Assembly (NCBI GenBank): GCA_032718475.1
Contig: JAUCBJ010001346.1
Span: 16,475 to 80,474, forward strand
DNA: 64,000 bases
Direction of reading: 5' to 3'
Source of the DNA: Nemertoderma westbladi
Taxonomy: Eukaryota; Animalia; Xenacoelomorpha
The position numbers were made by a program, and so were the translations under genes. Positions within the stretch are counted from its first letter, which is position 1; every line of letters starts with the position of its first letter. Positions 19,790 through 57,492 of the stretch are shown one piece after another. The notes under the pieces were generated by a model. It was not told the DNA's origin and searched no databases. It saw nothing but the letters and a program-made list of their open reading frames with translations.

Positions 19790-21300
19790 TCGGCCTGCTG
19801 CATTGAAGCTGCACATTGTGATGCTATGTCGGCTTAACAGAAAAATTTTGCCACCACCATGCAATCCACAATTGGCAAGCCCAATGCAGCGTGCATTAAG
19901 AATGCTATGCCGGCTTATCAACAAAGTTGCACCGCCACAACTCCCTATCCACCACGGCTTTCGCGAGATCATCCACATCTTCAAGGTCAGTGTCCTTTAG
20001 GAGACCCCTAGATCCCTTCTTATAATAAAATCCTTTAGGAGAGGTCTCATCTCAATAAAGTCATGGGCTGTCCACCATGCTTATTTTCGCCGTGGGGCTG
20101 CCAAAGCACTAGATTGTGAAGAGGCTGGTCCTCACAGAGAAAACAGTGTCCTACAAAGCAGTATACGATGGTTCGACAACATTTGTGTCTACTGTTGACG
20201 GTGACACAGAACCATTTGAAGTGTTATGGGGCGTCCTCCAGGGAGACACACTTGCACCATTCTTGTTCATAATTGTTGTTGACTATGTTCTACGCATGTC
20301 CTTAGATCATCATAATGGTGATGGGGTGATGATAACTCCACCTACTGGCTCCAGAAGTTGAGGAAATCCTGCCAAGTACCTAACTGGTCTAGACTTTGCT
20401 GATGACTTAGGAGTACTCTCAGAATCACTAGAGGGAGCCCAACGGCTCCTCAGCTCATTAGAACATGCTGCTTCTAGTGTTGGGTTTTTTATTAACTCCA
20501 GAAAGACCAAAATTTTGACAGTTAACTTTGAAAGTCCTCAGCAAGTCTCTGATCGGATGAGCATAAGCTCAAAAGATGGTATGCTTGTGCATGTGGGTGA
20601 CTTCTGTTACCTGGGATCATGGATCCGGAAGTCAGGTGAGGACCTTCGAATACGTAAGGGAAAGGCATGGGCAGCCTTGAATAGGCTTTCCAGGATTTGG
20701 AAGTCACCGAGAATTAATCGGAAACTTAAGGTCCGGTTATTTAGAGCAGCAGTAGTTCCAGTACTCCTCTATGGGAGTCCATGCCGGGCTCTAACTGCTG
20801 AGGACAACAAATCTCTGGACGGCACATTCAAAAGAATGCTACGCCGGGTTCATTGTGTTAAGTTCAATGCACACATCTTTAACCAGACACTATATAACAT
20901 TGGAGGTGTCTCATTGGATCCCCCAAGCTTGCCACTAGAACAAAATCGCCTCCGCTTTGCAGGACATTGCTTTCGCCGTGAGGACCAGCCAGTGCATAAT
21001 CTTGTACTTTGGCAGCCTCATGGAGTGAATAAACATGGTGGACAGCCCATGACTTTCTTTAGACGCATCTTAAAGGACACTGGCCTTGAAGATGCGGATG
21101 ATCTAGCAAATGTCATGGGTGATAGGGAGTTGTGGCGGTGCAATTTTGTCGATAAGCCGGCACAGCATTCTTAAAAATGCAGCTGCAATGCAGCATGCCG
21201 ATCCTAGTAGTAGTAGTACAAAGCGGGGGCGGCTTTGCAAGGCCAAGCTTGGGGGAACCAATGAAACACCTTCAATTTTATATAGTGTCTGGTTGGAGAC
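19790..21300 (-). mobile_element. Old RTE 3'-end fragment (19790-20159 plus 21225-21300) split by a younger antisense copy of the same family
   Basis: Colinear diverged similarity to 43880-44200, resuming directly after the insertion. Confidence 0.8.
20160..21216 (+). mobile_element. 5'-truncated RTE-clade LINE (RT C-terminal half), (TAG)n tail, 8-bp TSD
   Basis: GVLQGDTLAPFLF and LDFADD motifs, RLRFAGHC, tail TAGTAGTAGTAG, TSD TACAAAGC at 20152-20159 and 21217-21224. One in-frame stop. Confidence 0.92.
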
Positions 21301-30600: not shown

Positions 30601-32430
30601 CTTCTAGTATTTGTCTCTACTAGTATTTGTCTCTACTAGTATTTGTCTCTACTAGTTTTTGTCTCTACTAGTATTTGCCTCTACTAGATTTTATCTCTAC
30701 TAGTATCTTCATCTACTAGATTTTTTCTCTACTAGTTTTGTCTATACTAGTATTTGTCTATGCGAGTATTTGCCTCCACTAGTATTTGCCTCTACAAGTG
30801 TTTGTCTCTACTAGTATTTGTCTCTACTAGTATTTGTCTCTACTAGTATTTGTCTCTACTAGTATTTGTCTCTGCTAGTATGTGTCTCTACTAGTATTTG
30901 TCTCTACTAGTATTTGTCTCTACTAGTATTTGTCTCTACTAGTATTTGCCTCTATACTAGTTTTTTTCTCTACTAGTATTTGCCTCCACTAGTTTTTGTT
31001 TCTATTAGTTTTTTTATCTACTACTATTTGCCTCCACTAGTTTTTGTTTCTATTAGTTTTTTTCTCTACTAGTATTTGTCTATACTAAGATTTGTCTCTA
31101 CTAGTATTTGTCTCTACTAGTATTTGTCTCTACTAGTATTTGTCTCTACTAGTTTTTGTCTCTACTAGTTTTCCTATACTAGTATTTGTCTCTACTAGTA
31201 TTTGTCTCTACTAGTATTTGTCTCTGCTAGTATTTGTCTCTACTAGTATTTGTCTCTACTAGTATTTGTCTCTACTAGTATTTGTCTCTACTAGTATTTG
31301 CCTCTACTAGTATTTGCCTCTACTAGTTTTTATCTCTACTAGTATCTTCCTCTACTAGATTTTTTCTCTACTAGTTTTGTCTATACTAGTATTTGTCTAT
31401 GCGAGTATTTGCCTCTACTAGTATTTGCCTACAAGTGTTTGTCTCTACTAGTATTTGTATCTACTAGTATTTGTCTCTACTAGTATTTGTCTCTCCTAGT
31501 ATTTGTCTCTGCCAGTATTTGTCTCTACTAGTATTTGTCTCTACTAGTATTTGTCTCTACTAGTATTTGTCTCTACTAGTATTTGCCTCTACTAGTTTTT
31601 TTCTCTACTAGTATTTGCCTCCACTAGTTTTTGTTTCTATTAGTTTTTTTATCTACTAGTATTTGCCTCCACTAGTTTTTGTTTCTATTAGTTTTTTTCT
31701 CTACTAGTATTTGTCTATACTAAGATTTGTCTCTACTAGTATTTGTCTCTGCTAGTATTTGTCTCTACTAGTATTTGTCTCTACTAGTTTTTGTCTCTAC
31801 TAGTTTTCCTCTACTAGTATTTGTCTCTACTAGTATTTGTCTCTACTAGTATTTGTCTCTGCTAGTATTTGTCTCTACTAGTATTTGTCTCTACTAGTAT
31901 TTGTCTCTACTAGTATTTGTCTCTACTAGTATTTTCTCTACTAGTATTTGTCTCTACTAGTATTTGTCTCTACTAGTATTTGCCTCTACTAGTTTTTATC
32001 TCTACTAGTATCTTCCTCTACTAGATTTTTTCTCTACTAGTTTTGTCTATACTAGTATTTGTCTATGCGAGTATTTGCCTCTACTAGTATTTGCCTACAA
32101 GTGTTTGTCTCTACTAGTATTTGTCTCTACTAGTATTTGTCTCTACTAGTATTTGTCTCTACTAGTATTTGTCTCTGCCAGTATTTGTCTCTACTAGTAT
32201 TTGTCTCTACTAGTATTTGTCTCTACTAGTATTTGTCTCTACTAGTATTTGCCTCTACTAGTTTTTTTCTCTACTAGTATTTGCCTCCACTAGTTTTTGT
32301 TTCTATTAGTTTTTTTATCTACTAGTATTTGCCTCCACTAGTTTTTGTTTCTATTAGTTTTTTTCTCTACTAGTATTTGTCTCTTATAATTTATCTCTAA
32401 TAGTTTTTGTCCCAAGTAGTTTTTGGATCT
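27690..32430. repeat. 16-bp minisatellite (CTACTAGTATTTGTCT)n with ~640-690-bp higher-order repeat, interrupted by a CRE element
   Basis: 16-nt periodicity. The rare variant GCGAGTATTTGCC recurs at 30070, 30762, 31401 and 32067. Confidence 0.97.
28170..29982 (+). mobile_element. 5'-truncated CRE-clade non-LTR retrotransposon (RT C-terminus, zinc finger, REL endonuclease; ORF open to 29724) with poly(A)
   Basis: FADD, LPTRLGGLGIP, CACG..HVLSC..GG..RHNEIRD, RLDV...IDVSV, ENRKRAQYEERV motifs. A24 at 29915-29938. Candidate TSD ATTTGTCTCTAC (28158-28169 / 29982-29993). Confidence 0.92.
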
Positions 32431-32706
32431 ACGCGTGACTGGTGCAATATTGATGATCGGCCGCCAATGTTTTTGTAATGTTTATCACTAATTAATGGAA
32501 TAAGCAATTTATTGTTCCCTTGTTGCAAACGTTTGACGGTTAAAAAAAACTAATTATAAGTCAGTTAGCGGAAAATAAGGTTGTTAAACTGAATAGTTTC
32601 AAATTCCATGCAATCTAATTAAGATTCGTAAATAATTTGTTGCGGTTTATCTTTAGGGTCGTGACACTGAATGAAGACATTAATATTCCATGATAAGGTT
32701 TTTAAG

Positions 32707-34986: not shown

Positions 34987-36115
34987 TGTAAAAGCTTTTG
35001 CGTACATAACAATTCATTTTCACGCAATGCGCAGAATACTCTAAAATAGCCCTAAAATTGTTCAACTACGCGTCGGAAAGAAATTAGAACCAGGGTGACG
35101 AAATCTGTCAGCTGATTCTTTGTGTACGTGGAGGTTTCTTTGTTCAGACTTATTCAGCCAATCAGAGCAATCTTCCCAGTTATGCCAGTAGAGACCTACC
35201 TGAGGAAACTAGCGCAATGCATTATGGTTATGGTTTTTCTGAGAATTAGATTCCTCTCAGGATTTTGTACTAAGTACGGTCGTTTCAGACTTTGGCCCAA
35301 GAACATCTGATGGCCTTAGTTATAAGAACGTAACTCTATTAACATTTTACCGACTTAACTACTCAATACGACGCATTGCACCAAACTGAACTTCATGAAC
35401 ACATACTGACTGTTCACCGCACCGTTTTACTGCTGTTTTATATTGTGTTAATTGTTGTTTATATTAATGGATGTTATATTTGGAGAATACCGATAAATAA
35501 TCATAAACCCCCTCAATCTTCTTGATTACTGAGGTAAGCGGAGAAAGAGTCTACCGGTAGCAACTGCGACTTAAAATACACTGGTTTTGTGTGAATTAAA
35601 TGCTGTTTCATAATCCCTACGTGTGTCAGTTGCAATCCTCCTTATATATGATCAAATTCAGTGACGGTCGGCAAATTAGTGTGAGTCAGTGTAAATTAGT
35701 GTGAAGTAGTGTGAAGTCGTGTGAAGTCGTGTGAAGGTTAATAAAGCATCTCCTAAAGAATGCGCTATTTACGAAACTCTGTGGCCATCTAGTTGTGATT
35801 ACTATAAGTCATAACTCTGTTTTTATACTTAAAGCGCCACATCCCAAAGGAACTGTTAATATTTCCCCGAAAGTAAATATAGTTGTCAGAGATTATATAG
35901 TAGCGATCAATCGAATAATACAAAGTAGCCTACACCGCAATACTTCCTAAGGAACCCGAATCCAGTCTCCCACACCGTGGGTCATACGCCGCGCACGGAC
36001 TGGCTTCGGCAGATGTAACTTCAGTGCACCAGGTAATTGGTAAGAGCCAAGGTCGATTCATAATCAAAAGGACAATTAAAATTGGCAGGTTATGTTTGTA
36101 GATTCCGAAATCACA
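34987..36115 (+). repeat. BEL 5' LTR (3' boundary approximate)
   Basis: TGTAAAAG start, colinear with solo LTR 9913-11132. CCAAT (~35158) and TTATAA (~35320) are conserved between LTR copies. Confidence 0.8.
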
Positions 36116-37008: not shown

Positions 37009-40000
37009 ATGAAGGGGTTCCAACAGACTGTTCAATTGTTAAAGGGAACAGTAAGGGAGAGTAGGTTAGAGCTGCAAGAAGTACAGCAAAATATCGCTCT
37101 AGAGCGCGATAAATTAGTAAATATACAAATGGGTATACCACCACCCCCTGTAACAATGTGTCAGCCCATTAGGTCTGAAGTATTTCATGCGCAAGGTGTG
37201 GAGCCTACACGCATCTATACTGCTAGCGAAGTAGAAACTCCGATCGTAAACCCTATTAAGGGTATTAATAAGCATGTTGATAATGATATCCCATAATGAT
37301 CTGATAATAATCCGAGGAATTTATATACCAATAATTCGATATTAAATAATACGATGGCTCAAGAAAGTTTTACCCGTCAGATGGCTAGAACTGAAGCCCG
37401 TCAAGCGGTAAAAGTGGGAGAGGTCGTCAAGTTCAATGGAGATGAGATGAAATGGTTACCTTTTAATGAATATTACAAAGATAACATACAGAACTCCGTA
37501 CTATCCAATGGAGAGAAACTACGATTCCTCATCGAGTGCTTGGAAGGACCTCCCAAGTCCCGGACGGATTGAGACAAGTTTGGGATACATTAAACATCAG
37601 GTATGGTAACAGGACTAACATAGCTAGGTATCTGTATGCGAAATTAGTAGTGCCCCGAAAGTTTCTTAGCAGCGGGATTATAGAGTTTTCAGATAAGATT
37701 CAGGAGATCTGTAGACAGCTAGACTGGTTAGGTAAGTCTCAGGAATACCAGAGTTCTATGGTTGTTGGAGCCGTAGCATCAACTTTGCCAAAGGGTGGAG
37801 TAGGTACTCGCTGGGACAAAAAGGTTCTCTATTTGATGGACCAACAACATAGAGACCCTACCATGGCTGATCTCATGTCGTTCTTAAACGGAGAGGTAAG
37901 ATTACAGCTCCTAAAACAGTCTAGCGAGAAGACACCAGAAAGTAAGGTAAGTGAAAAACCCGTTACTAGGAGAAAGGTAACACCAGTGTGTTATACAGAT
38001 GATTGCGAAAGCCAAACGTCATATGACGAGAACAGCGGCAAGGACACCGAAAGATCTTATTATGTCAACAAAGTTAGGAAAGACGTAAGTAAATCTAAGT
38101 CTCGAACCAGTGACAGGAGAGAACAGGTAACAACTCCCCCTACATCTCCTGAGAGAATTCATGGAAGGAAGCCCGAAGAAAGAGCTAGCATACACAACAC
38201 GATGCAGGTTAAGGTAAGTAACATCAAACCTAAGTGTGTATTGTTTGAGTGGGTGTGATGAATTCTTAAAGAAAACATTGAAGGATAGACGTGATGTCAT
38301 GTGGGGTAAACTGTTGTGCTATAATTGCCTCAGGCGAGGACATCAACGAAGAACCTGTTACTCAGACGCGAGGTGTGCTAAGTGCGGCGTGAAACATCAT
38401 ATCTTGCTGCACACCGAGTTTGATAGGACCCGTATGAGTCAGGTAAGTGAGCCCGAACTACATGTCCAATTCAGTGATGTGAACGACACTGACCACAGTT
38501 TGGAGATGGAAGGATTCTACACTGATGAATTCTCAAACGAAAATGAATCCTGTTATATGATCAACACAACCGTGTATCGAGCGCTTACGTATGAGACCGA
38601 AACGGAGAGAGAAGATCCTCGATTGTCTATTCCGGATCGACAGCCCTCTTGGAAAGCGCCAACATCTTCTGTCGGTATCCGAGAATTCCCGGTGGTGCAA
38701 CTGAGGGTCCATGGGATGGGGAAGGGTTTAATAGTGAAGTACAGGCACCTTTATCGACAAAGACCTAGCCGAAGATATCTTTGCTGGTCAACCAAAGTTC
38801 CGAACCAAACTGAACCTTTCCGGAATTATGTAGGTTTGGAAATCCACAGTATCAACAGATTACTATGTGGGTTCATTGTCCACTCCCCAAGATGAACTCG
38901 GAGAAAATAGTGTAAGGTCAGTCAAGATGGTAGCAATAAAGAACTTTGCTACTAGCCAAGTGGAGCCTTACAACTGGGACGAAGATCATTTTACCCAGCA
39001 ATACAACATACCTAGATTCAGTACCGATTATCCAGGGGTACAGATTTTGCTCAGCCAAAATGCGCACGAGGCGCTTGAGACATTAGAAAAATGGCCTGCT
39101 CGACCGCGACCACTCCAGACGTATGAGGGAAGAACAAGAGTAGGTTGGTACTTCTCTGGACCTTCCCATAGGACTTTACAAGAAAGACTCCCGAGTGAAC
39201 AAGTCCACCAGGTAAATAAGTGGGGGGAAGATATAAGTGAAGAAGAAATTCCAGCTGAGGAAACTCCATACTCCTCAGATAATGACGACATATGTAATTT
39301 ATATGACGAGGAAAATACTATTGAACTCCTCACTGAGAACCAAACTTGGTTAAACCAGGTCAACTTATGTAACCTTATCAGTCAACATAGCGAACAATTG
39401 ACGTATGATGATGAATTAAATGAAGCGGTAGAGCGGTATAATAGTAAAATACGCGATGAACACACCGTACGATTCTTTACTCAAGAAGCGGTAGAGCCTA
39501 ATTCCTACAACAAAGCATTATTGGTCGAGGAAGAGAGAGCCAAGCAGATTCAGGAAACGACCACACGTTATCTGAAAGATGAAAGTCGTTACGAGATTGG
39601 TCTGCCGTTCCGACGGAGAGAACCCAGCTTCGTGAATAACCGACCTTTAGCGGAAAGAAGAATCGCGCAACTTCATCGGCATTTGACGGCTAACGATCGA
39701 GCCAAGGAAATGTATAGAACTCAATTGAAGAAATTTATAGACAAGGGATATGCGGAGCGAGTTCCGGAAGAAACACCCATAATGGAGAGAACGTATTATT
39801 TGACACATCATTACGTTCCCAAGCCTAGTAAACCAAACGAAGTCCGGGCAGTGTTTGACGGCTCCGCCCTTTACATGGGACAATCCCTGAATTCCGAACT
39901 GTTGCTGGGACCCAACTTACTCCAATCTTTGTTGGGAATATTAAAACGACTGCGGCAATATTCGATCGCCTTCGCTTCGGACGTTGAAGGAATGTTTCTA

Positions 40001-43000
40001 CAAGTCAAAGCGTTAGCTAGGGATTGAGACAGCCTACGATTTCTGTGGTGGCCTGAAGGAGACCTCAACCGACAACCAGTGGAGTACTGGATGACAATCC
40101 AGGCTTTCGGGATCATCTCGAGCCCCTCGAATGCTTGTTCGGTAGTGCGTACCACTGCCGATGACAACAGAGACGCCTTCTCTAAAGCGGTTATCGACAA
40201 CATCAAACGGGATATTTACATGGATGACAATTTAAAGTCCCTCTCATCGGTGGAAGAAGCAATCGATGTTGCCAAGGGAACGGTAGAGTGCTTACAACGC
40301 GGTGGATTTCGCCTAACCAAATTCACTAGTAACTCACGTGAGTTCCTGGAATTGATACCAGTAGAAGACCGAGGTGTTAAAGACCTGGACCTCATTAAGG
40401 ACGATCTTCCAGAAACCAAAACTCTTGGATTAAAATGGGACACGGAGAGAGATATTCTATTCTTTCAATTGAAGCAACGAGATAATCCAGTCAGAACTAA
40501 ACGGATTTGTCTAAGTATCCTGAGCACTTATTTCGATCCGTTGGGATTCATTAGCCCAGTCATACTAGTTGCTCGGAGCTTAGTACAACAAATGTGGCTC
40601 GAAAACCACTCGTGGGATGATCCACTCAAGGGAGAACTGCTAAAGAAGTGGATGAAATGGGAAGATTCTTTACCATCTATCGAGAACTTTAAGATTTCCC
40701 GCTCATATTTCAGTCACATTCTCCCCACGTATTCCTATCAACTCCATGTTTTTGGAGACGCCAGCGATATGGGAATAGGTATAGTAGCCTACCTGAGGGT
40801 TGAAACTCCCGATGGAATTAAGGTTTCATTAGTCGCCTCTAAGGCCCTAATAAACAACAAACTACGAGTTCCCAGAGCGGAGTTAAAGGCGGCTCTATAC
40901 GCTACAGCCATCGGCCGGAATGTAACGAGAACAGATCGACTATCCACTAGAGAAAACTGTCTATTGGACTGATGCTTTACTCGTTCTGGAGTATATAACT
41001 AATGAAGTCTGTCAGTTCAGCGTCTTTGTTACCAACAGAGTAGCCATTATACTCAGTCGCTCTAATATAGATCAATGGAGACATTGCCCTGGGACGATTA
41101 ATCCAGCTGACATCGCTTCCAGAGGAGCAACTCCTCAAGAATTGATAGATACTCCAGACTGGTTAGGTGGACCCGACTTCCTGAGTAAAGAAGAGGAGGA
41201 ATGGCCCCCTCATCTCACCACGGCGGAGATCAGACAAGCCAAGGGAGCGGAGAAAGTCAAACCGAAAACCCGGACGAGTAAATCAAAGTTATTTAAACCA
41301 GTGATAGATCTGTCTGTGCTACATGCCTCCGGTGACGATGCTGTGGATCTAAACTCACCCAAGGATGTTACCCGAAATACAAATAAATCCGTTATAGAAA
41401 TCAGGGAAAGAGACTGGAAATCTGGAACACCAGATGTCTCGCGAGGACTCTCTCCTCTCCTACAAAGAGCGATAGATCATTACAGCTCCTGGAATCGGCT
41501 TTGCAAGGCCATTGTGTATCTGAAAAGATGTTTCCATCATCACTATTCCAGGATGAAGATCGCTAATGGTACCGCTCCAGTAGTAGCTGAAAAGGTCCAT
41601 GCTACTAAAGACCTTCCCACTTATAGAGTGTCTGACAGGTTTCTGACCGAGAAGATCAGTTACCAAGAACATGATGATACCAATCAAGCAGCTACTGAAA
41701 CTCTTGCAATGTTACGAGGATTCCGATAAGTATTTCCTGTTGTTGAGAAATCCACAGATGCGCTTAAGGGATCGTTTCTCTAGCACAATGATAGATGGGT
41801 TAATACGTGTCGGAGGGAGATTAACCAATGCTCCATTGTCCTTTGACACTAAGTTTCCCATACTCATTAGAAATCTTGAAATACAAATCAAGATGATTGT
41901 AGATTTTCACAGTAAGCTTTACCATGCTGGTAGAGAACAAGTTCTTAGCGAAATTCGAACTCGCTATTATTTCCATAAGCCCCGTAGAGCTCTAAACCAA
42001 GTTCTTAGGAACTGTATACCCTGTAGGAAAGCATTTAGTAGGCCTTTAACACAGCGAGAGGCAGAATTACCTAGGGAACGAGTAAGCTGTTATGAACCAC
42101 CCTTTACTAATACTGGTGTGGATTTATTTGGCCCTATTGAAGTATATCGTGCTAGGACTACAGTCAAGCGATGGTGCGTCATCTTTGTCTGTATGACTTG
42201 TAGAGCGATCCATCTAGATATGGTGAACGATCTATCTACCAACAGCTTCATACTGAGTTTACGCCGACAAATCGCTCGTTTTGGGACTAGCAACACTATG
42301 AGATCGGACAAAGGAACTAATTTCATTGGCGCCAATAACGAGATCAAAGCTTACGTGAAGGATTGGAACCAATGACAGGTGGACGATCAGCTAAGAGTAA
42401 CAGCATCTAGCTGGACCTTCAACGCCGCCGACGCCCCTTGGTGGGGAGGAAGTTGGGAGAGACTCATACATAAGCGTAAAGACCGCATTTCACTTTATAG
42501 TGCCGTGCCGCACATATCTCACCAACGAACTTTTGCGGACGTTAATGGAAGAAATCGCCGCCTATCTCAACGAGAGACCGCTTATGCCAGTCTCATCTAG
42601 TCCCGACTCCCTAGAAGCGCTAACACCCGCGCATTTCCTACTTAAGAAACCTGTAGCCATGCTCCCGCAATCGGAAATAACAGACGTAGACGAATACTGC
42701 CGACAAACTTGGCAACTTATGCAGTTATTATCCCATCGTTTCGCTGACCATTTCGAAAAACATTATCTTCCTACGCTACAACTTCGAACAAAATGGTTTG
42801 CGCAGCAAGAAAACATCAGCGCCTGAGACATGGTCCTTATCGTGGAATCAGATCTTCCACGTAAGAGGTGGCAGACAGGTCATATCATCGAGACTCATAT
42901 ATCCGATGATGGTTTAGTGCGATCGGTAGAACTTGTCGTCATGCGACGTAACTATAAGAAACCTGGGATTGTGTTCGAAACACAACAACTTAATTGCCCA

Positions 43001-43087: not shown

Positions 43088-43854
43088 TCCAACAAACATC
43101 TAGGGACTCCTCAATGTAACAACGTTTGGAGTGGGTGTGTGACTACATTATTTTATTTTTTTTATTTTTATATTTATGTATGTATTATTATGTAATTTTA
43201 TTATAATTGTTTTCTTTAATTTTATTTAGTAGAATAATATTTTAACGATTATTCAGTAGATTAGTGCAATATATTCGTGTTTATTACTTAATTACTTAGC
43301 ATAATATATTTCGTTTAACGGCGAGAAATAATTCATTTTCTCTTTCCTTACTGTCCGTATCATACTATAAATACGTGACTACAGTAAGATGAAATGTCCG
43401 TACTTATTAAAAGTACAATACCGCCCCTACTATACTCAAGTATTATTGGTAAGTAGAGTATTAGGAATGCAAAGTTCAGATCCTCGTGTCTCGGCTAAAC
43501 CAAGCTCTGGGTAGACCTTGGAAACAACTTGCCTCTTCTCACTGACATTGCTTCTTGCAATATTGCTCTCATACCGTATCTTAAATAATACGTATAGTAG
43601 AATGATTTCCATTTAACAGTAGCGATTGAAGTGCAAAATATTTGTTAAACAAATCTGTTAATCAATCTTCAAATAAATCTGTTAAACCCTTTGACCATCT
43701 GAAATTCTAGTCGATTAAGATATCGCGGCACCCACCGATATACTTGAAAGACAAAATTCTAGAATCAGTGGTTAACGTCCCCAGACATGTTCTGGAATAA
43801 ATAGGTGCCCATCCTAAATATTAAATATTTAATAAATATTTACAATGTTTGTTA

Positions 43855-45890
43855 TACTACTACTACTACTAGGATCGGCATGCGCATTACAGCTGCATTT
43901 TTAAGAATGCTGTGCCGGCTTGTCAACAAAATTGCACTGCCACAACTCCCTATCACCCATGACATTTGCTAGATCATCCGCATCTTCAAGGCCAGTGTCC
44001 TTTAAGATGCGTCTCAAGAAAGTCATGGGCTGCTCACCATGCTTATTCACTCCATGAGGCTGCCAAAGTACAAGATTATGCACTGGCTGGTCCTCACGGC
44101 GAAAGCAATGTCCTGCAAAGCGGAGGCGATTTTGTAATAGTGTCAAGCTTGGGGGAACCAATGAGACACCTGCAATGTTATATAGTGTCTGGTTGGAGAT
44201 GTGTGCATTGTACTTGACACAATGAACCCGGCGTAACATTCTTGTGAATGTGCCATCCAGAGATTGGGTGTCCTCAGCAGTTAGAGCCCAGCATGGACTC
44301 CCGTAGAGGAGTACTGGAACTACTGCTTCTCTAAATAATCGGACCTTAAGTTTCCGATTAATTCTCGGTGACTTCCAAATCCTGGAAAGCCTATTCAAGG
44401 CTGCCCATGCCTTTCCCTTACGTATTCGAAGGTCCTCACCTGACTTCCGGATCCATGATCCCAGGTAACAGAAGTCGTCCACATGCCCAAGCATACCATC
44501 CTTTGAGCTTATGCTCATCCGATCAGAGACTTGCTGAGGACTTTCAAAGTTAACTGTCAAAATTTTGGACTTTCTGGAGTTAATAAAAAGACCAACACTA
44601 GAAGCAGCATGTTCTAATGAGCTGAGGAGCCGTTGGGCTCCCTCTAATGATTCTGAGAGTACTCCTAAGTCATCAGCAAAGTCTAGATCAGTTAGGTACT
44701 TGGTAGGATTTCCTCGACTTCTGGAGCCAGTAGGTGGAGTTATCATCACCCCATCATCATTATGATGATCTAAGGACATGCGTAGAACATAGTCAACCAC
44801 AATAATGAACAAGAATGGTGCAAGTGTGTCTCCTTGGAGGACGCCCCATAACACTTCAAATGGTTATGTGTCACCACCGTCAACAGTAGACACAAATGTT
44901 GTCGAACCATCGTATACTGATCTGATTGCTGCAATAATTTCATCAGGAATCCCATATAATGAAAGTATGCTGAACATACGTGAGCGAGAGACTGAATCAA
45001 AGGCCTTGAAGAAGTCAACAAAGATAACAGCCAGATGCCTGTCTTTCTTTTTTGATAATTCTTCAATTATCCTTCTAAGTGCCAAAATGGGCTCCATGGT
45101 CCCACGACCTTTACGGAACCCATTCTGATTTCCATGGAGCAGTCTCTCAATGGGATCCCTGATGCGATTTAATAAAATCCTATTGTATAGCTTTGCAGCA
45201 ATCGAGATCAATGAGATTCCCCGAAAAGAACCATAGAGTGTTAGGTTGCCCTTCTTGGGAACTGGCACCAACTTATTTGTTTTCATTTCTTGTGGGACTC
45301 TCGTTGTTCGGTACATGTCTACTATGATGGGATAGATGAGCTTTAAACACTCAGGTATTTTAAAGACCTCAGGGGGAACACCATCTACTCCACTGGCACG
45401 ATTGGTCTTAATGCTCTTTGCAGCAGCCTTCACTTCTGCAAAGGAGATATCGCCAATGGGAATATCTGGGAGTACAGACTCAGAAACTTTTACTTCTATA
45501 AAGTTATCAGGCAATACCCTGTCATTATTGAGGAGCTTTTCAAAGTGGGCTTTCCAACCATTGAGGCGATCGGCTGGTGATTCAGCCTTAACCTTGGTGG
45601 TTGGTTGGCTTTTCCGCCCAGTAAGCAAATTGATCGATTTCCATGCCTGGGATAATTGCCTGCTGTTGTCAGCATCATTGATGGCATCAACCTGTTGGTT
45701 TATTAGCTCCTGTAGATTAACAGAGTACTGCCTGTTCAGGGACCTAGATGCAGCCTTAACTGCATTCTTGGCCGCTGTAGTCTGTTTGAGTCGGGACTCT
45801 TTCTGCGCCTTATGAAGGTCATTTCGGCACTTCTGAATTTTGTTGTCAGTCCAGGGGGCCCTTTTCCTGTTTCGAGGGTATACAGGAACT
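43855..45890 (-). mobile_element. 5'-truncated RTE-clade LINE nested in the BEL element
   Basis: PKKG..FRGISL, QNGFRKGR, FVDFFKAFDS, GVLQGDTLAP and DFADD motifs, (TAG)n tail at 43855-43871, one frameshift near 44860. Same family as 20160-21216. Confidence 0.95.
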
Positions 45891-46865
45891 GAATAACAAA
45901 TGTTAAAATAGAGAAAATTATAAATTAAATCTGTTAAACCTATAGATCCTCTAAAATTCTAGTCGATTAAGATATCGTAGTACTTACCGATACTCTTAAA
46001 AGGCAAAATTCTGGAATTAAGGATCCTAGTCCCCAGACATGTTCTGGAATAAAATTGTGTCTATTTTAATATCAAATAATAAAATTCACGGGAATAGATT
46101 TTGAATTCATATCCTCTCATGAATTTAATAAATTGTCATTTTATACAATGTAAAAACATTCCCAAAATTCAGTTAATTAATAGATCTTGGGAGCGGAGAT
46201 TCACCCTATTAAGTATATCAGTGTGAGAGAATCTCCAGTGTATAGTCAATAGCATAAAATCATGTATAAGGGGAATATTGACAATTAAAGAATCACTATT
46301 AAATAGCATCCCAGATCTGTATGCATGAGAAATACCCTAATTCTACCGCTAGCTTTGCATAATGTCACCATAGTAACAACCACGCTAGAATTAGAAGTGA
46401 GTTAAAAGAACAATAGAAAGCTTGCCCCATTGAATAGCATGCGGAATAAATAGCACCTTGCTAGTATCTAGGGATACATAATAATAACGTGGCATTCTGG
46501 AAGGCATTTGACTAACGGACAAATGGCCCTAATTTGTACAAATTGTGGCAGGAATGTGGAATTTGTATATTTATAGGTGAATGTTACTACTAAAGTGTGT
46601 TTACAGTAGCGAGTCGCAGTTGTGAAAGTTACCCTGCCTCTGTAGCAAGTACCTCCAGTATATCCAAGCCCTTGGGACGGACAGTGGAGTGACTCGCGCT
46701 GTTTATTGCTGTCGTTGTGTAGCTACTACATTGGCGAGAGGCACAGCGATGACAGTACATCAGCGCTGAGGATCTCACGCTGTCTGGGGGCACAGAGGGG
46801 GAGGCAGCGACGACCGCTAGCCTGATTATTATTAACTCTAATATGGATAAACTCATATAGCAGCT

Positions 46866-48335
46866 ATGACTGAGTTGATAGAAGATGATCTTGGTATCAG
46901 GGAGCGATATACCCTACCACTGAAAGCGTTTGTTGATAGTTTGATAAGCGGTGACGCTAGTCAATATACGACGGAAGACGATGGCCGTTATATCGAACCT
47001 CCCATGTCAAAGGAACAGCTCAAGCGTGAATTGGACTATAGAAAATTAACCGCTCGCTATACGCATCGTAATGGTATGTATATGGACTTCTTAACTACTG
47101 GTCATCCTATCGATTTACACAATACGGAGATGCAGATACTTATACTACGCATTATCTGAAGTATAGCTATTTACCTAACGCAAGCGAACGCGCAACTTTA
47201 TGGCATCCAGTGGGTATGACCATAGAAAACGCCACCAAAGAGTGGAACGAAACTCTTAACGTTATCGAAATGTATGGAGTTGTCACTTACGATAACGAAG
47301 GTAGCGTTCCGGTTGGAGAACTGGGAACTACTCGAATGAGACACATACGAGGACTGGCGGGTTCTACCCATGTATTTACTCGAGCGTGTTCCGACGTGAT
47401 CGATTATTCTTTTGAGACTCTCACAGAGATACAAAAGAAACTCCGACATGGACAATTCGAACTCGCGCAACGTTATGTTATCAATACCGAGCGCAAACCG
47501 GCCATGGGTATAGATGGATCTATGCTACCCCAGCCAGTGCTCGAGATGCTGTTTGACGAGAGAATCCTTAAAATCGTCTCAGCTGTTTATGGAGATCTCC
47601 AAAATGACTTCAGAAACATGGAGAATATCCCATGTCCTTTCGTAGACACCCAGCTGATTGCACCCTGGGCAGAAGGCCGAGGTTTCTTCCGAACCATGTA
47701 TGCCAACACATCAAGCGGAATCAATAAAGTACAAAGAACCTCTATCAGACATCTTGCCTTCCAAGAATACGGATGGAATTTCAAAGTTGGAAATCCTGTC
47801 AGTCATCAACAAATATATGGAGACCACTATTCTAAATTATATTTTGACGGACCATTAACCGCACCTGGAGTCGTCTATAGCTTTATGAGTGTTCCACTCC
47901 GTCCCTCATTAGATATATATACTATCTTCGAGAACGCCACACTTGCCGGTTGGCTAGCCGATGTGTGCAGTCGCACTATACGCGCTCATCCCTTAGTGCT
48001 TGGAACCAAACTCGCCAAGCTAGATGAACACAATAAATTCATCCGATTCGAATGCTTTAGGCGCTTTCTGACTCCGTTCCGCAACATCGATAGTCAGTTC
48101 AAGGACCGCGCTTTGACTAAGCTCAGCTTAAGAGACTCAGCTGCTGAGAAGTTGGACAGCGCTGGATTCGCTATTTTTAAGGACGTTTGTATACAGAACC
48201 TACATTAATCTGTCATACAAAGATCCCGAATTCCCACCGGTTATTCTATTGTGGAAGTTCAAACAGTGGGTTCACTTGAGGAAACAGCTGCGCCTATCTC
48301 AGCTATGCAAGTGGAAGAAGAACCAATTTGCTTGG
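46866..48335 (+). pseudogene. BEL accessory ORF2, 5' part: DEDDy-type (WRN/EXD/RNase D-like) 3'-5' exonuclease domain
   Basis: ExoI VVTYDNEG, LPQPVLEMLFDERILKIVSAVYGD (ExoII), FVDTQL, SIRHLAFQEYG, PLTAPGVVYSFMS (ExoIII position). Frameshift near 47118, in-frame TAA at 48206, frame then open to the Gypsy TSD. Confidence 0.72.
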
Positions 48336-49138
48336 TGTTACAGGGCTGCACGGCATTTCTGCAGTGTGAATTCCAAAGATAAAGAAATGAGTTATTTCAA
48401 CATCAGTCAAAATATTTATTCGGCAGTTAGGCCTACTTAGTTAGTTAGGCATTGCAACAGCAACAAAATACATAACCCCAGCAGACAGACAGACGAACCT
48501 ATATATATATATCTAAATATAAAACCGTACCGGTATCGGCATATCTACACTCCCTGGCTCTTTCTAAACATCACCCTTCTATCCCATTCCACAAAAATCA
48601 TACAGTACTATATATGGGTCAATGATAAATAAAATAGGGTGGTCCCCTTATCATATTACACAGTCACCCCGCCAAGAAAATGGTCATCGTCCCTGATGAT
48701 GTAAAAAAAATACAGTTTTAAAACTATACAAAAACAAAAACTATATAGAAACACTAAAGCATTATTAAATCACGTCTGATTAGGCTTCAACAAAAAAAAC
48801 TGTGTCTCAGCTTCTATAAAAGTCGGATCACCACTGAAACTTGACAATCGATCTAATTACTAACTGGCCAGGAAAGCAATCTAAACATCGATATCAAAAA
48901 CAGTAAATAGCATTCAAATTAATGCTACTAATATATCAGTCCACAAACTGAAAGTAACCCTTCTAATTAAGAATATGAAATATTCCAAATTGAACAACAT
49001 GTAAAGCAATATTATTTCAATCGCCATTAAACAAAGATAAATAAAAAAAAAAAATGCCAACTTTGGGCAATATAAAGATATACAAAAACCTAAACTCTAT
49101 AAACAAAAAACGAACAAGTTTTTAAAAGTTTAACAAAC

Positions 49139-52100
49139 TTAGGGCAGTGAGTAGTAAGGCATATAAGACGGTTGGAGCTGAAAATTATGTAACAGTGTAC
49201 TATAATATAACTGGGGAGACAACATAAATAATTGCTGCAGGACTGAATTCAGAACAATAAGTAGTTGTTCATAAGAACAATGATTGACAGGACAATCGTG
49301 CTGCTGAACATGGGGGTAATTAATAAAAGCTGGGGAATTTGCAGAAATATACTGCAAATGAGTAACCCCAGGTGACGGTGTTGGTTGATGACTACACAGT
49401 TGATAAGGACTTCTTAGTGGATGTTGCCAACGATGTCCACGGCGACGTGCTGCAACATTAGGGTTCTCCAATCCTCGACCTGCACCATTATTATCACACC
49501 GTTGAAAAGGAGAAGCTGCTGGATTCAATTCCGGGGGTAAATGAACTGTAGAGTTCGTTATAATTGAGTCATCAATCTCGGAAATGTTACGGCGAGGAGG
49601 TAATAAACCGATATATCCCTCATCATCATCAGAACTATCCATAGATTCTGGTTGGATAGGCTTATTATGATGGTTAGGTTTAGGCTTGAGTTGTGTTGTC
49701 TTGATGGCTGGTTTCATATGTTTACCGTTGTGAACATGTTGATCCATATTCAAATAATAGCAGGGGAACAACATATTTCTATGAAGAGTTCGTGTTACAG
49801 AAGGATTAGATTCTACAACGACCTCATAGACTGGATTCTCTCCAAAACGTTTTTTGACAATATAAACATCCTTTGACCAGTATGATTGGATCTTTCTATG
49901 TGGTTGGTTGGGCTTTGTAGATTTGACCAAGACACGATCACCAATATCTATGTCATGTCCTCTAACACGCTTACTGTATTGCTCTGCACCATGGTCACCT
50001 CCTTGTTTACTATGTTTCTCAGCTAACTTGTATGCTTCAGCCATCGCCTGTTTGTACCTATCAGCATACTTTGAAGGTGAAGTCACGTTCTCTTCCTCAC
50101 TTGTCTCACAATCCTGGAAAACCAAATCAATAGGCAGACGCGGTGATCGCCCAAAAAGCAAATAAAATGGAGCAAATCCTGTAGAAGAATGGCGCGTACA
50201 GTTATATGCATGCACCAATTTATTCAGATGCTTGGGCCAATGTACCTTCTCAATGTCAGTTAAATTTCTCAACATGTTAAGTAGAGTTCTATTGAAACGT
50301 TCAGTCTTTCCCTCACACATGGGATGATAGGGTATTGTTCTAGAACGCTTTATACCTGTCATTTCAGCTAAACATTTAAACAGTTTATTATCAAATTCAC
50401 GTCCCTGATCATGCAAGATACGATGCGGGAATCCATAACGAGGTATAAATTCGTTGAAGAGCTTTTCAGCAGCTGTTTTACTTTCCTTATTTCTTGTTGG
50501 ATAACATTCAGCATGTCGTGTGAAATGATCCACTAGGACTAGTATGTACTTAAAGCCTGTCTTTTGAGTCTGATTTTCAACTAGCAGAAAATCTAGAGAA
50601 ATTAATTCAAATGGTTTAGTAGTATGAATTGAAACCATTGGAGCTCTATCAAGGATGTTTGGACGTCTTCGCTGAAGACATGGACATCTCCTATTGATAT
50701 ATGTTTCAACATCAGCTGTCATTCGTGGCCAATAAAAACGATCTCGTATTAAACTCAATGTTCTTTCAACAGCTGGATGGCCCATTTTAACATGTAATTC
50801 ATCTAATACAAAGTCTTTATAGCACCTTGGAAGAACCAACTGCGATGATTGATTAAACTTACGATATAAAAGGCCATTCTTTATAAAAAGCTTGCGAGAT
50901 TCTTTCAACAATAACTTCACATCTGGTTCTATACTCTCGCCAAACTTAGAGTCATCGCCATTTCTTTCCATCTTCTTAAGTACAGGACCAATAACAGGAT
51001 CTGAAAGTTGGCTATGTCGCAGTTCATTTAGTGGAATATGATGAAGAGTTTCTCGGTTAATTTCTTCATCATTCAAATCAGTACTATACAATTCAACTGA
51101 AATTGGAGCCACAAACAATTCCTCATAATGTTGTATTGAATCAAGATATGCTTTAAGAAAATCACCTGATAATACTTCTACTTCGCTACTATCAGTAGAA
51201 TTATTCAATAAACTTGGCAATCGTGATAGAAAATCAGCATCAACATTACTCTTACCAGATCTGTAAATAATATCAAAATTAAAATCACTCAATTCTGAAA
51301 CCCATCGAAGCCCTGTTGCATTTAGCTTCGCTGTAGACATAACATATACAAGAGGATTATTATCGGTATAAACACTGAACTTTGGAGCATATAACAAGTA
51401 ATCCCTAAATTTCTCAGTGATGAGCCACTTTAATGCTAAAAATTCTAGCTTTCCTGAATGCAAGTGATAGTTTTTCTCAGCCTGGGTCATGTCAATGATC
51501 GTGAGGCAAAAGCAATAACGCGCAGCTTATCATCTGCCTGTTTCTGATACAATACTCCTCCAAGCCCATGATTACTAGCATCAGTTGTTATAATAAATGG
51601 TTTCTCAAAATCAGGGTAGGCCATTATTTCAGATCCAACTACTTCATTTACAAGTGAATGTAGTGTCTTTAAATGTTCATTATTTAACTGAATTTTATCA
51701 CTAGAAAGCCTTTGGCCTGTCCTTGTCTTCTTAACAGTTTTGTCACCAGTCTTTAATATATCATAAAGATTAGCCGCCTTCTGCGCAAAGTTTCGAATAA
51801 ATCGGCGATAATAACTAAGGAAACCTAGCACACGACGTAGGTCACCTACAGTCTCTATATTCGAATCTTTGATCTTCAATACATCATCTTTAACCATAGG
51901 ATCTATATAATATCCACTGGAACTAACCATAAATCCCAGAAATTTAACTTGATGATGGAACAATATGCATTTCTCTATTTTCAGCTTGGCTCCAACTTCT
52001 CGTAATTTCTTAAATGCCATCTTTATGGTTTCCAAATGTTGTTCAAAAGTTGTATCATATAAAAAAGTATCATCTTGAAATGGGTTACAACATTCATCTC

Positions 52101-53760
52101 GCATATCCTCAAAAGTATCGTCCATCTTTCGCTGAAAACAACTAGGACCATTTGAAATTCCAAACGGAATCCGTATCCATTGGTATTGGCCCCATGGAGT
52201 TACCAAAGCAGTATAAGGGCGACATTCCTCTTTTACATACCCCTGATGATACGCTTTAGCTTGATCTAATAAAGAGTACCACTGTCGACCTCCCAGATTG
52301 TCTAATAAATCCTGCACTTTAGGTAGTGGATGTTCATCCCTAACAAGTTTCTTATTTAAACCTCGATAATCTACACAAATTCTAAATCCACCACATTTCT
52401 TTCTGACACAAATAAGTGGAGCTGAGTAAGGAGAGTTCGATTTTTCTACAAATCCCTTTCGTATAAGATCACTCAAATAATCTTTTACTTCCTTATATAT
52501 ATTACGAGGTATAGACTGATATGATTTCTTAACTGGAATTGAGTCTGTAAGCTTTATGTCCATTTGTAATGAAGGCATATTACCAATATCAAATGAGTCC
52601 TTGACAAACAAATCTTTATTATCGTGAAGTAGGGAATGGAGAAGGTTTCGTTGATCATCATTCTCAAGCTCCGTTTTTTTTTATCACAAATTCAATCTTT
52701 TCATCCATAGACAATTGAATTAGTATGGTCATCTATTGACTCTTTATTTACAGCATAAATCAGAGTATCTTCAGTCTCATCATCAGATTGAAGTAGGCCA
52801 ACTGGAAATATTGACTTCACAAAAGAAAGATGTCCAACCACTGTTAATGGTGGTAATCTCTGTACACTTGGGCCATTGTTTTCAATGAGAATTGATATTC
52901 TAGAAAGCAATTTATCTGAATCATCAACTGATACAAGGCCTTCCATAACCACAACATCGGGGATTAATTCAAGAAAATTATCATCCACTTGAAATAACAT
53001 CACATCATTTGCAATCAATGATTTCAATGAATACAAATTAACCCAATTTCTTCCTGGTTCAATAAACATTGGTTGCTTGTTAGTTCTTGCAGGGACCACA
53101 ATAAATTCATTATTAGTATTAGCCTTATTTACAAAATCACTAGCTTGACTAACTGAAATCCCTATCGCAGAAGCAATTGAAGAATTAAACATTGGTCTAT
53201 TGCTGTTAACCAATTCCAAATCCTTGCACATTTCCAAATAAACCTCAATAACATTATAACCTATAATTGGTCGAACTAAACCTTTTGTAGTTGCCACTAA
53301 TACGAGAACTTCTAGACAAATGTTTGACACATTAGCAATTTGATTTCCTGGAAAATCCATGAGCCGAAATGGAAGAGGAATCCAACCTAAGTAAGGAATT
53401 GTAGAACCATTTGCAGCCCGAATTAAAATTTCAGAATCCAGGAGTTCACTAATTGGTCTTATTGTAATATCATGCATTTTCTCAGCAACCCAAACACTAG
53501 ATACCACACTAACCTGTGCTCCAGAATCCCAAAAAGCCTCAGACTTTACATCACCTAACCAGCATGTTATAGTACATATATGCCCCACCAACTTTACTAG
53601 CCGACTACTATTGTTAGCCTCATTGCTACTAGTAACCAGACTACAAAGTTCAATTTCTTCAGCAAAACATGTACAACGTGAAATAATGTCTTTGTTAGGG
53701 GACTTTGCGAAGTAATCTATGGCCGTTGCCCGTCCCTCGGAAACGGACGGCTTGAGTTTT
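49139..53760 (-). pseudogene. Gypsy pol: protease, RT, RNase H, integrase; frameshifts near 52690 and 51488
   Basis: DSGAQVS, RICVDYRGLN, IPFGISNGP, FQDD (deviant from YxDD), TDASNHGLG, HxxMGH..CPC, VDHFTR, HDQGREF, KTERFNRTL. Confidence 0.95.
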
Positions 53761-54967
53761 CCTGATGCCGAGACTCACCTAAATTCTTGGCTCTATTCCT
53801 GCAACCACGAGCATAATGATCTGAGCTGCCACAATGAAAACAATGATCACAATGGACATCATCACCTCCTTCTATACGTAAACTACATTGCCTACAGCTT
53901 CCTCTATGGACATACATATTCTTAGTTGTAACTGGCTGCCCCTTTTCAGCTCTTCCAAAAAATTGCTTGATGCCTTCAGTTAAAGTACTAACCTGAGCCG
54001 TTAACAACTGAACATCTTCTCTCAGATTTCCACCATCTTTTTTCACAGTCTTAAGAAGACCAACTGAATGTAATCCTTCAGCTTCTACAGGCTTTCCATC
54101 ACCAGTACTAATTTCATTCAAAACAACCTTTGCTGAACCAGAAACTTGTTTGGAAAGTTTCGCACTTTTCAATTTTTGCTGTCGCTCAGACTCACGGCAT
54201 GTCGACTCATTAAGTGCTTCCAGCAACTCAACCTCAGAAACAACATTTTTTAATTCCAGTAGTGGCTTTAGATCACTTCTAACTACCTCATTTGTTAGAG
54301 CCATGTTAATAGTGCGCATAGTTACACGTCTCACCAACTCAATGTCATATTTGAATTGAGCACCATCTTCTTGAGAGGCAAATAGTATCTTTTGCTGTAA
54401 ATTGAATACTCGTAGAACAAATGACTGAGCATCTTCATTAGCTTCTTGGATTGAATTGAACAACTCATGATACACTTCAGTAGGACCTCTCTCACAGTAA
54501 TGTGTTCTAATAAATTTACGTAGCTCACCCAGGGTCAATGAATCACGACTTTCTAAGAAACTTCTTAATGGCAAATTCGGGTCAATTGCCTTTATCACAC
54601 CCATTACAATCTCACTGTCAGAGTAACCTTTATCTACAGCTGCTTGAATCTGCTTCAAAAGACTGCAATAAACTAATGTATCCTTAGAATTTCGATCCTT
54701 TATACTACCACTTACTTTAAGTTCACGTCTGTTATTTTTAATAAAATCCTGTGAATCCAAAACCTCAGCTTGTAATGTGTTGAACTTACCTGTAAACTTC
54801 GAACTTAAATCACCAATTGCCGATTCATTAGTTTCCCTTTGAGCTGTAGTTATAGCTGAAAACTGATCTTTCAAGTCACTGATTGTATTTTCATACTGCT
54901 GTCTTTGTGCATTTAAAGCCGCCTGAACAATTGCATCAACCTCTTCACGCTGCATTTTAACTAGCAA
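53717..54967 (-). CDS. Gypsy Gag (coiled coil, C-terminal CCHC knuckle CFHCGSSDHYARGC)
   Basis: Open 416-aa ORF downstream of the PBS. Confidence 0.9.
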   Translation of the reverse strand: MLVKMQREEVDAIVQAALNAQRQQYENTISDLKDQFSAITTAQRETNESAIGDLSSKFTGKFNTLQAEVLDSQDFIKNNRRELKVSGSIKDRNSKDTLVYCSLLKQIQAAVDKGYSDSEIVMGVIKAIDPNLPLRSFLESRDSLTLGELRKFIRTHYCERGPTEVYHELFNSIQEANEDAQSFVLRVFNLQQKILFASQEDGAQFKYDIELVRRVTMRTINMALTNEVVRSDLKPLLELKNVVSEVELLEALNESTCRESERQQKLKSAKLSKQVSGSAKVVLNEISTGDGKPVEAEGLHSVGLLKTVKKDGGNLREDVQLLTAQVSTLTEGIKQFFGRAEKGQPVTTKNMYVHRGSCRQCSLRIEGGDDVHCDHCFHCGSSDHYARGCRNRAKNLGESRHQENSSRPFPRDGQRP

Positions 54968-55468
54968 TGTAATGAACTAATCCGTATAGCAAACAGCAAA
55001 TTTGTTAGGCTGTAGGCCTGTATTATCTCTCTAATGGCAGACTGAATCGTAATAGGGAAATAGAACTAGGTAGTTTACACTTTCTGTCTGGTACCGGTAC
55101 CGGTACACTTCAGCACTTCCAACGTCTGAAAATCAGCATCAGCAAGTTTAAAAATATCTAACCTCATTATTTATTAGTCGAATTCACATCCACAAATGAC
55201 CCAATGAGTGAAAACTTTACAACTTGCAAATCAGATACCGGTATCGGCAATGCAGTAATATACGGTTGACAAGCCTATTTTCCATTATATCCATCCATAC
55301 TACCATATCCCAATCTTTATACATAACTGATCGTTCAAGGCCAGGTTTAATAAGCACAAGAAGTACAAGTACTGGTTTCCGTCACCATGCCAAAATCAAA
55401 TACAGTAGCCAGTCAGTAGCAGCTCCGGTCCGCCGGTACAGAGCACAACAATTTCTGAATTTTGACTG

Positions 55469-55486
55469 ATCTCGTCCGGGTCACCA
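55469..55486 (-). promoter_or_regulatory. Gypsy primer-binding site, tRNA-Trp-like
   Basis: TGGTGACCCGGACGAGAT versus the tRNA-Trp complement TGGTGACCCCGACGTGAT (16/18), 3 nt from the LTR. Confidence 0.8.
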
Positions 55487-55835
55487 AAATGTTACAGGGC
55501 TGCACGGCATTTCTGGAGTGTGAATTCCAAAGATAAAGAAATGAGTTATTTCAACATCAGTCAAAATATTTATTCGGCAGTTAGGCCTACTTAGTTAGTT
55601 AGAATACATAAATACATAATAATAATAATACATAAAATACATAACCCCAGCAGACAGACAGACGAACCTATATATATATATATCTGAATATAAAACCGTA
55701 CCGGTATCGGCATATCTACACTCCCTGACTCTTTCTAAACATCACCCTTCTATTCGATTCCACAAAAATCATACAGTACTATATATGGGTCAATGATAAA
55801 TAAAATAGGGTGGTCCCCTTATCATTTTACATTGG

Positions 55836-56895
55836 AATCCGAGGAGATTCAACCCACAGCACCCAGGAGTAGCGACAATGATTATGTGTTGGAATGGTAT
55901 CAGGGTCCACAATGTCTCACGGCATATGATTATCGGCATGCCAATTACATTTCTAGGAAACGTTGCCGATTATGTGCATCATGAAACCACTTTACCCCGG
56001 TGGACTCCAGCAAACCCTGCTCCTACTTTAAAGATCAAACCTATTATGGAGATTTATTGTGCGTATTGTAGACTCAATAATCTACACATCTTCGCCGTCT
56101 GTCCTCAATTTATGACTCAATGTCACCATTGTCAGTTCAAGGGATATGCAAGTTTCGATTGCCCTTTCAACCGTGATCTGGAGAGCGTAGACGAAACAGT
56201 TACCCTGCGCTTCATCAGAGCTTGGGAAGCTAACGCGGATCTCCATTGCGAATCACGTCACCGATACTATCCAGGACGTGCATATGAAGGAGTCTATGCG
56301 TTTCACCCATACCTCTTTGCATCCGTCGAACAAAATTCTCGCATTCCCAGTTACGAACTGATGAAGCGTGTTGGCGAGAATATTTCAACTAAATATGTTC
56401 GCAAATATCTTAGGAATATTAATCCCAATAACCTGAATTCCTATAAATTGATCAACTTCATCCGTCAAGATCAGGAATACAGCGACTTGATCATAAACTC
56501 GCATCCTGAATTACAAGAAATTCATAGATGACCCTATGAATATAAAGCCAGAGAACGCGAATTAGAGAGAACAATTAAACCGCGGAAATTTCTCACTACA
56601 CACAGTCAACCTACCGCTGTCGTACAAACGACCCATCAAGGACCGGTAAGAGCTGCCGTCCTGAAACGAGCTCTAAAGGTTGTTCGCCCTCGTTCCACCG
56701 ATGTTGACATCGATCAACCGGGTACCTCGACCGGCGGATACACCGACCGTAATCCAAAACCTTCTGATGCAATCGTATTGCACCCTTCACCCAGGAGTTA
56801 TAGCCCTCCTAGTAAAGTGGCTTGCGCCAAAGAGAAAAAGACTCTTACTAGTCTCAAAAAAACTTCGTAAACGCCGTTCACGAAAGAAGGACTAA
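55836..56895 (+). pseudogene. BEL accessory ORF2, 3' part: CCHC-type zinc knuckles and basic C-terminus
   Basis: In frame with the 5' part across the TSD (EEPICL|ESEEIQ). CRLCAS*NH, CAYCRLNNLHIFAVC, CHHCQFKGYASFDC; KKLRKRRSRKKD after a frameshift in an A7 run. Confidence 0.7.
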
Positions 56896-56971
56896 TAGTT
56901 TAGAGTATTTTTGTATTTTAGAAACTGTGATTTTATATTTTATAGACTTAAATCCCATTTTCTGGGAGCGG

Positions 56972-57492
56972 TGTAAAAGCTTTTGCAGACATAACAAGTC
57001 ATTTTCACGCAATGCGCAGAATACTCTAAAATAGCCCTAAAATTGTTCAACTATGCGTCGGAAAGAAATTAGAACCAGGATGACGAAATCTGTCAGCTGA
57101 TTCTTTGTGTACGTGGAGGTTTCTTTGTTCAGACTTATTCAGCCAATCAGAGCAATCTTCCCAGTTATGCCAGTAGAGACCTACCTGAGGAAACTAGCGC
57201 AATGCATTATGGTTATGGTTTTTCTGAGAATTAGATTCCTCTCAGGATTCTGTACTAAGTACGGTCGTTTCAGACTTTGGCCCAAGAACATCTGATGGCC
57301 TTAGTTATAAGAACGTAAATCTATTAACATTTTACCGACTTAACTACTCAATACGACGCATTGCACCAAACTGAACTTCATGAACACATACTGACTGTTC
57401 ACCGCACCGTTTTACTGCTGTTTTATATTGTGTTAATTGTTGTTTATATTAATGGATGTTATATTTGGAGAATACCGATAAATAATCATAAA
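56972..57492 (+). repeat. BEL 3' LTR, truncated after 521 bp
   Basis: Near-identical to 34987-35507, then abrupt loss of similarity. Confidence 0.95.

Follow-up and report, generated by a model that had tools for sequence, protein, structure and literature searches.

The window, by which we mean the whole stretch of 64,000 nucleotides of Nemertoderma westbladi DNA that was analysed, contains a BEL/Pao LTR retrotransposon with an additional sense-strand gene between pol and its 3' LTR, hereafter the accessory ORF. The gag-pol region of this element carries, in order, the DUF1759, Peptidase_A17, Integrase_H2C2 and DUF5641 domains (Pfam, 37485-42823), in keeping with the PR-RT-RH-IN order of Pao-type gag-pol, and its pol is matched at E ≤ 1e-10 by 87 BEL polyproteins, the closest being 44% identical. 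The two LTRs (34987-35507 and 56972-57492) are identical at 514 of 521 bases. Two further retroelements lie within it, one in the spacer behind pol and one inside the accessory ORF, and the features that matter here are the following.

34987..35507, + strand: BEL 5' LTR, the portion matching the 3' LTR (LTR comparison)
37485..42990, + strand: BEL/Pao gag-pol, split over several frames (Pfam, including Peptidase_A17 at 2.6e-34; 87 BEL polyproteins)
43858..45900, - strand: LINE-like RT insertion, with approximate limits, in the spacer that separates pol from the accessory ORF (RVT_1 matches; AATGTT on both sides)
46866..47128, + strand: N-terminal piece of the accessory ORF, about 88 codons from the ATG, without a family match, ending at a frame change
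47132..48205, + strand: stop-free piece of the accessory ORF with the RNase D-like (DEDDy) domain
47291..47299, + strand: candidate ExoI D-x-E (D47291, E47297), the best place of a mixed-family ExoI block (P=0.008, 500 shuffles) and found by one of three profiles
47531..47665, + strand: ExoII block with D47594 and a DTQ motif, 45 residues gapless against RNase D (TIGR01388, E=1.7e-4; 18.6 bits with our own profile)
47852..47890, + strand: ExoIII-like PLT-x5-Y, the catalytic Asp position being taken by Ser (highest-scoring ungapped placement, P=0.064; no gapped HMM match)
48209..48335, + strand: acidic linker between the stop at 48206 and the Gypsy insertion
48336..55831, - strand: Gypsy element nested inside the accessory ORF (Pfam; TG..CA LTRs; TTGG target duplication on both sides)
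55836..56897, + strand: 3' part of the accessory ORF, containing the knuckles, a stretch that looks helical and a basic tail, interrupted by two stops and two frame changes
55964..56020, + strand: knuckle-like motif 1, C-x2-C-x4-H-x10-C, with a stop inside
56058..56102, + strand: knuckle-like motif 2, C-x2-C-x5-H-x4-C
56121..56162, + strand: knuckle-like motif 3, C-x2-C-x4-Y-x4-C, with Tyr at the His place
56964..56971, + strand: short purine-rich tract 5' of the 3' LTR
56972..57492, + strand: BEL 3' LTR, cut at 57492 and incomplete in the window (LTR comparison)

The 5' LTR probably extends to at least 35922, and a related LTR fragment at 10504-10937 is 70% like its stretch 35471-35922. Once both insertions are subtracted the element measures about 13 kb, to be compared with the 4.2-10 kb given for BEL/Pao in the available text of PMC8742986, PMC13524379 and PMC3118150. 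The window also holds two tandem arrays, a 41-base satellite at 1-5950 and a second, complex array at 27690-32435.

The initial annotation, made from the sequence alone, had described a BEL/Pao host with a sense ORF of about 840 residues between pol and the 3' LTR, split by a Gypsy element whose removal with one TTGG copy joins the two parts in frame. The Pfam domains, the LTR match and an ORF of about 843 codons bear this out, as do the TTGG on both sides of 48336-55831 and the reading frames on either side of the insertion, which are in register. The Gypsy LTRs (48336-48660 and 55490-55831) show 12 differences in 325 positions and 17 gap positions; the host BEL LTRs diverge less (7 of 521), opposite to what the nesting order predicts; possible explanations are conversion of the LTRs, recombination among copies and noise in the assembly. 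The LINE-like insertion at about 43858-45900, absent from the earlier description, has its own ends, with a short-repeat tail and AATGTT on each side, and a second copy of it at 20159-21218, 95.7% alike, comes without the accessory ORF. Two 157-base copies, 78% alike, flank it at 43671-43827 and 45923-46078.

The accessory ORF runs from the ATG at 46866 to 56897 in pieces of 88, 402 and 354 codons and ends about 70 bases 5' of the purine tract and LTR; neither a tail nor a terminal repeat is seen in that interval. The window copy is damaged by frame changes near 47128, 56050 and 56860 and by stops at 48206, 55980 and 56529, in line with the roughly three frameshifts and three stops proposed at the outset. 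From 47132 to 48334 there is one stop in the coding frame, and each of the other five has 16-34. The predicted lack of a transmembrane helix was likewise borne out, no 19-residue hydropathy window exceeding 0.95 in the six ORF pieces, so that on this measure the ORF is not env-like. Pieces of contigs from public sequencing runs break off at 47125-47128 and leave loose ends, which suggests that the first frame change is peculiar to the window copy. A 208-base skip with its joint at 46892-47101 is seen at high depth in three runs and probably marks a subfamily whose ORF has lost internal sequence in its N-terminal part. Just 5' of the ATG, at 46838-46863, a CTAAT is followed about 20 bases on by TAG-CAG, a pattern just before 46866 that we take to resemble a branch point and splice acceptor.

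The likeness of the accessory ORF to exonucleases is carried by its ExoII block. NCBIfam RNase D models match it at E=1.7e-4 (TIGR01388) and 1.4e-3, and a profile of our own, built from 22 bacterial RNase D domains, gave 19.3 bits on the exonuclease piece through the same gapless 45-residue ExoII match (P=6e-8), the best of 1000 shuffles reaching 2.7 bits and 16 other ORFs of the window at most 0.2. The likeness to bacterial RNase D (TIGR01388) thus lies in the ExoII block and its DTQ motif, whereas the accessory ORF scores only 20-21 bits where the cut-off is 299, has no HRDC match and lacks the ExoIII Asp. Gapped HMM tests of the regions before and after ExoII stayed at chance level, leaving ExoII as the only statistically firm block; short RNase D profiles did not place the whole piece above shuffles, and Pfam PF01612, the model suggested as a check by the initial annotation, gave no match in the accessory ORF. 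Searches by tblastn returned RNase D as the sole, weak match among plasmids (E=2) and the N-terminal part of Pol I as the top, weak match among phages (E=9). The local score of hhalign corresponds to a probability of 74%, a figure without a shuffle control, its global mode and the control for that mode being uninformative.

Placement of the flanking motifs depends on the method. MAFFT agrees with ExoI at 47291 and needs about 40 inserted residues before the next strands, hhalign places ExoI near 47400, and with an RNase D-only ExoI block the 47291 site falls outside the top three placements. That same block also scores at 47954-48013 (P=0.002, 500 shuffles), which may reflect the helix after ExoIII or chance. 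ExoIII is set about 19 residues earlier by both MAFFT and hhalign. Even so, the ExoI-like, ExoII and ExoIII-like motifs stand in the right order, and the residues quoted in the initial annotation are present; it is its claim of the expected local spacing that fails, at ExoI. Its wider comparison with WRN, EXD, Mut-7 and RNase D exonucleases is narrowed to an RNase D signal; a bacterial WRN-like profile run on the whole piece did no better than chance (206 of 1000 shuffles scored as well). A single-sequence AlphaFold model of the domain has a pLDDT of 30; a second model (pLDDT 62; top fold match RNase D, E=1.3e-4) was discounted as circular because its alignment included 41 DEDDy proteins. Judged on the sequence evidence, a DEDDy fold for the accessory ORF appears very probable.

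Of the catalytic positions, D47291, E47297, D47594 and Y47876 are present. The position of the ExoIII catalytic Asp, four residues past the Tyr, is occupied by a Ser (codon AGT at 47888, two changes away from Asp), no Y-x3-D occurs in the translation after ExoII, the earlier ExoIII placement of MAFFT and hhalign included, and the His that RNase D has in ExoII is replaced. No difference at 47888 occurs among the 40 of 74 and 40 of 552 rows of differences listed for the sister copies, a weak sign that they share the Ser. Activity is doubtful because the ExoIII Asp is missing, and the protein would more likely be catalytically dead or weak than active; the PLT-x5-Y reported at the outset is there, but the label of nuclease is not supported. 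In the accessible text on trypanosome RNase D, the D230A mutant retains trace activity only (PMC7797062), and Maelstrom and EXD1 are described in the portion of PMC5408684 at hand as DEDD derivatives that are inactive but still bind RNA.

The 3' part contains three CCHC-like near-matches, two of them damaged, followed by a basic tail. The knuckles and tail of the initial annotation are thereby recovered in outline, but none of the three fits C-x2-C-x4-H-x4-C exactly. This half was compared with Pfam, PHROGs, NCBIfam, the window and the 87 BEL polyproteins; Pfam zf-CCHC gave no match, nor did any Pfam model under E=0.08 for 55838-56528.

Contigs of public sequencing runs were aligned at 80% likeness to 46100-48660, a stretch found in three of six runs from two studies, one of which runs may be the source of the window itself. 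The contigs aligning to it numbered 10310, 6931, 3310 and 121 in four runs. In one run (X1), contig depth summed to about 3e4-2e5 over 47218-48249 against about 55-85 on the Gypsy LTR, depth not being copy number, and the spacer upstream is covered as deeply as the accessory ORF. Single contigs in another run (X2) stand at depths of 9657 and 8846, other listed pieces on the BEL part lying at 35-160, and the depth of these single contigs points to what would be tens of near-identical copies. Among the pieces listed inside 47122-48275, 17 of 18 are gap-free at 11-19% difference, and five of the six listed in the upstream spacer contain gaps.

The accessory ORF is retained under purifying selection in sister copies of this multi-copy BEL/Pao family, as read on 47560-47920 of the exonuclease region, because the differences are mostly synonymous and nearly gap-free. 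The count rests on the 40 of 74 difference rows listed for this interval, chosen by the tool and each taken singly, and is not a dN/dS. In the ORF frame 27 of these 40 are synonymous, where 12.3±2.8 would be expected (none of 20000 simulations as high), as against 9 and 7 when the other two frames are read; 24 of the 40 fall at third positions (p=4.9e-4). The bias is found in the 25 listed differences that are variable among copies (20 synonymous vs 5 not), those at which nearly all copies depart from the window being 7 synonymous vs 8 not. A further 16 differences among the 40 of 552 rows listed divide into 10 synonymous and 6 not, and no indel row in 47560-47920 reached 20%. The region is thus present in sister copies with a synonymous bias, contrary to what a neutral one-off capture, or its lack from sister copies, would have given.

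Searches with 47159-48205 found no homologue among 2320 candidates of longer and 1503 of near length (word-indexed search), among 1.84 billion representatives (phmmer), in the ESM Atlas or in metagenome and viral contigs, and gave three chance matches per search against PDB sequences. A pol-based metagenome scan yielded nothing for the exonuclease piece, and none of the 87 BEL polyproteins has a fused RNase D-like domain. No report of an exonuclease in BEL/Pao was found in the literature searched, which lies outside most subscription papers, Repbase reports and supplements. The ICTV profile (PMC8742986) names only env-like third genes for BEL/Pao, as do the surveys PMC13524379 and PMC3118150 in their available text, where the word exonuclease occurs in neither.

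Third genes of this kind have precedents in other elements. In the accessible text of PMC5408684 and PMC6431247, the bdelloid rotifer LTR retrotransposons Juno and Vesta and the Athena/Terminon elements carry a DEDDy ORF3, and that of Juno and Vesta resembles the present gene in being an RNase D-like DEDDy third gene of an LTR element, non-envelope and without a TM domain. Compared by description in the same available text, the rotifer ORF3s retain their catalytic residues (DEED) whereas the ORF described here lacks the ExoIII Asp, and its BEL/Pao carrier, about 840 codons, three knuckle-like motifs and basic tail are unlike theirs. The part of PMC5408684 at hand further describes exchange of DEDDy ORFs between retroelement classes, and reports that the rotifer cargo neither deviates clearly from neutrality nor shows an association with copy number; Dada DNA transposons also bear DEDDy domains, according to the accessible portion of PMC3706591. 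BEL/Pao elements with env-like third genes likewise hold them between pol and the 3' LTR, but in the available text (PMC8742986, PMC13524379, PMC3118150) these are glycoproteins, whereas the gene described here is non-envelope. Among cellular proteins, Trypanosoma brucei RNase D (TbRND; PDB 7c42/7c45) is described in the available part of PMC7797062 as an RNase D-group domain followed by tandem CCHC fingers that replace HRDC and bind substrate RNA. Unlike the accessory ORF, which is element-borne and has three knuckle-like motifs, TbRND is an active enzyme of the cell and has four fingers, and the common architecture would likely be convergent since the PDB sequence searches gave no direct match to TbRND. 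The remark of the initial annotation that such a fusion was unfamiliar from BEL elements stands for BEL/Pao in the literature searched, but the pairing of exonuclease and CCHC has this cellular precedent in what is accessible of PMC7797062. EXD1 and Maelstrom, likened here by description, offer in the text at hand (PMC5408684) a DEDD fold kept for RNA binding after catalysis was lost; they are host genes, whereas the accessory ORF is element-borne. It would thus appear that the cargo is of a known kind, a DEDDy third gene as in rotifers, and that the BEL/Pao carrier, the knuckles and the missing ExoIII Asp are what is new.

We tentatively favour, with a probability of roughly 0.4, the reading that the accessory gene of this multi-copy BEL/Pao family encodes an RNase D-fold protein, dead or weak in catalysis, that binds RNA and acts on the element's own RNA. 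RNA binding is suggested because the architecture is like that of TbRND, whose fingers bind RNA, and of EXD1 and Maelstrom, inactive and still RNA-binding, as far as the available text of PMC7797062 and PMC5408684 describes them. The element's own RNA would be bound by the zinc knuckles, and its 3' end would be lodged in the exonuclease pocket and protected there, the target being the genomic RNA, for its stability, localisation, packaging or routing into particles, and the protein would be expressed from a subgenomic RNA. From the sequence we infer the whole-domain fold, the loss of catalysis, RNA binding, its target and subgenomic expression. An active 3'-5' exonuclease trimming the RNA 3' end, primer or cDNA of the element, with its fourth acidic ligand coming from a misaligned position, seems rather unlikely: three acidic residues (D47291, E47297 and D47594) are in place, ExoIII placement differs between methods and the rotifer ORF3s keep their catalytic residues in the portion of PMC5408684 at hand, but there is no Y-x3-D after ExoII, the ExoII His is replaced and ExoI requires a long insertion. 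Were the ORF a real gene without a DEDDy fold, ExoII being a local look-alike, the lack of Pfam, PDB-sequence, Atlas or phmmer matches and the pLDDT of 30 would be accounted for; we hold this improbable in view of a gapless 45-residue match with D and DTQ in place and of the correct order of the ExoI-like and ExoIII-like motifs.

Two other alternatives concern what the gene serves. The DEDDy domain belongs to the same superfamily as Nibbler/Mut-7/EXD1-type factors. An anti-silencing decoy or mimic of these, binding piRNA or siRNA 3' ends, would draw on this common superfamily, mut-7 and EXD1 being discussed in the accessible text of PMC5408684, and on the multi-copy state of the family; it appears distinctly unlikely, the signal being RNase D-like rather than WRN-like (bacterial WRN-like profile) and the measured stretch being under purifying, not fast, change. 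That the ORF is cargo of another mobile unit inside this BEL copy, and not a gene of the BEL family, would agree with a linkage to pol and LTR seen in one copy only and with the movement of DEDDy ORFs between retroelement classes described in the available text of PMC5408684. It is nevertheless very improbable, as neither a tail nor a terminal repeat is seen in the roughly 70 bases that separate the ORF from the purine tract and LTR, the spacer upstream is covered as deeply as the ORF, and the adjoining LINE is delimited by ends of its own and recurs elsewhere without the ORF.

A wider but unlikely possibility is that a BEL/Pao lineage evolved a pseudonuclease that has an RNase D fold and tandem zinc knuckles and would protect element RNA from, or jam, the host 3'-trimming and small-RNA machinery, a counter-silencing factor that might aid high copy number. 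Here a DEDDy-type cargo occurs in another LTR superfamily than in the rotifers, its carrier family is multi-copy and its synonymous bias is clear, which would mean that the element needs it. As the active site is likely dead and is coupled to knuckles, the question would move from what is cut to which RNA is held, and the finding would give BEL/Pao a non-envelope class of accessory gene.
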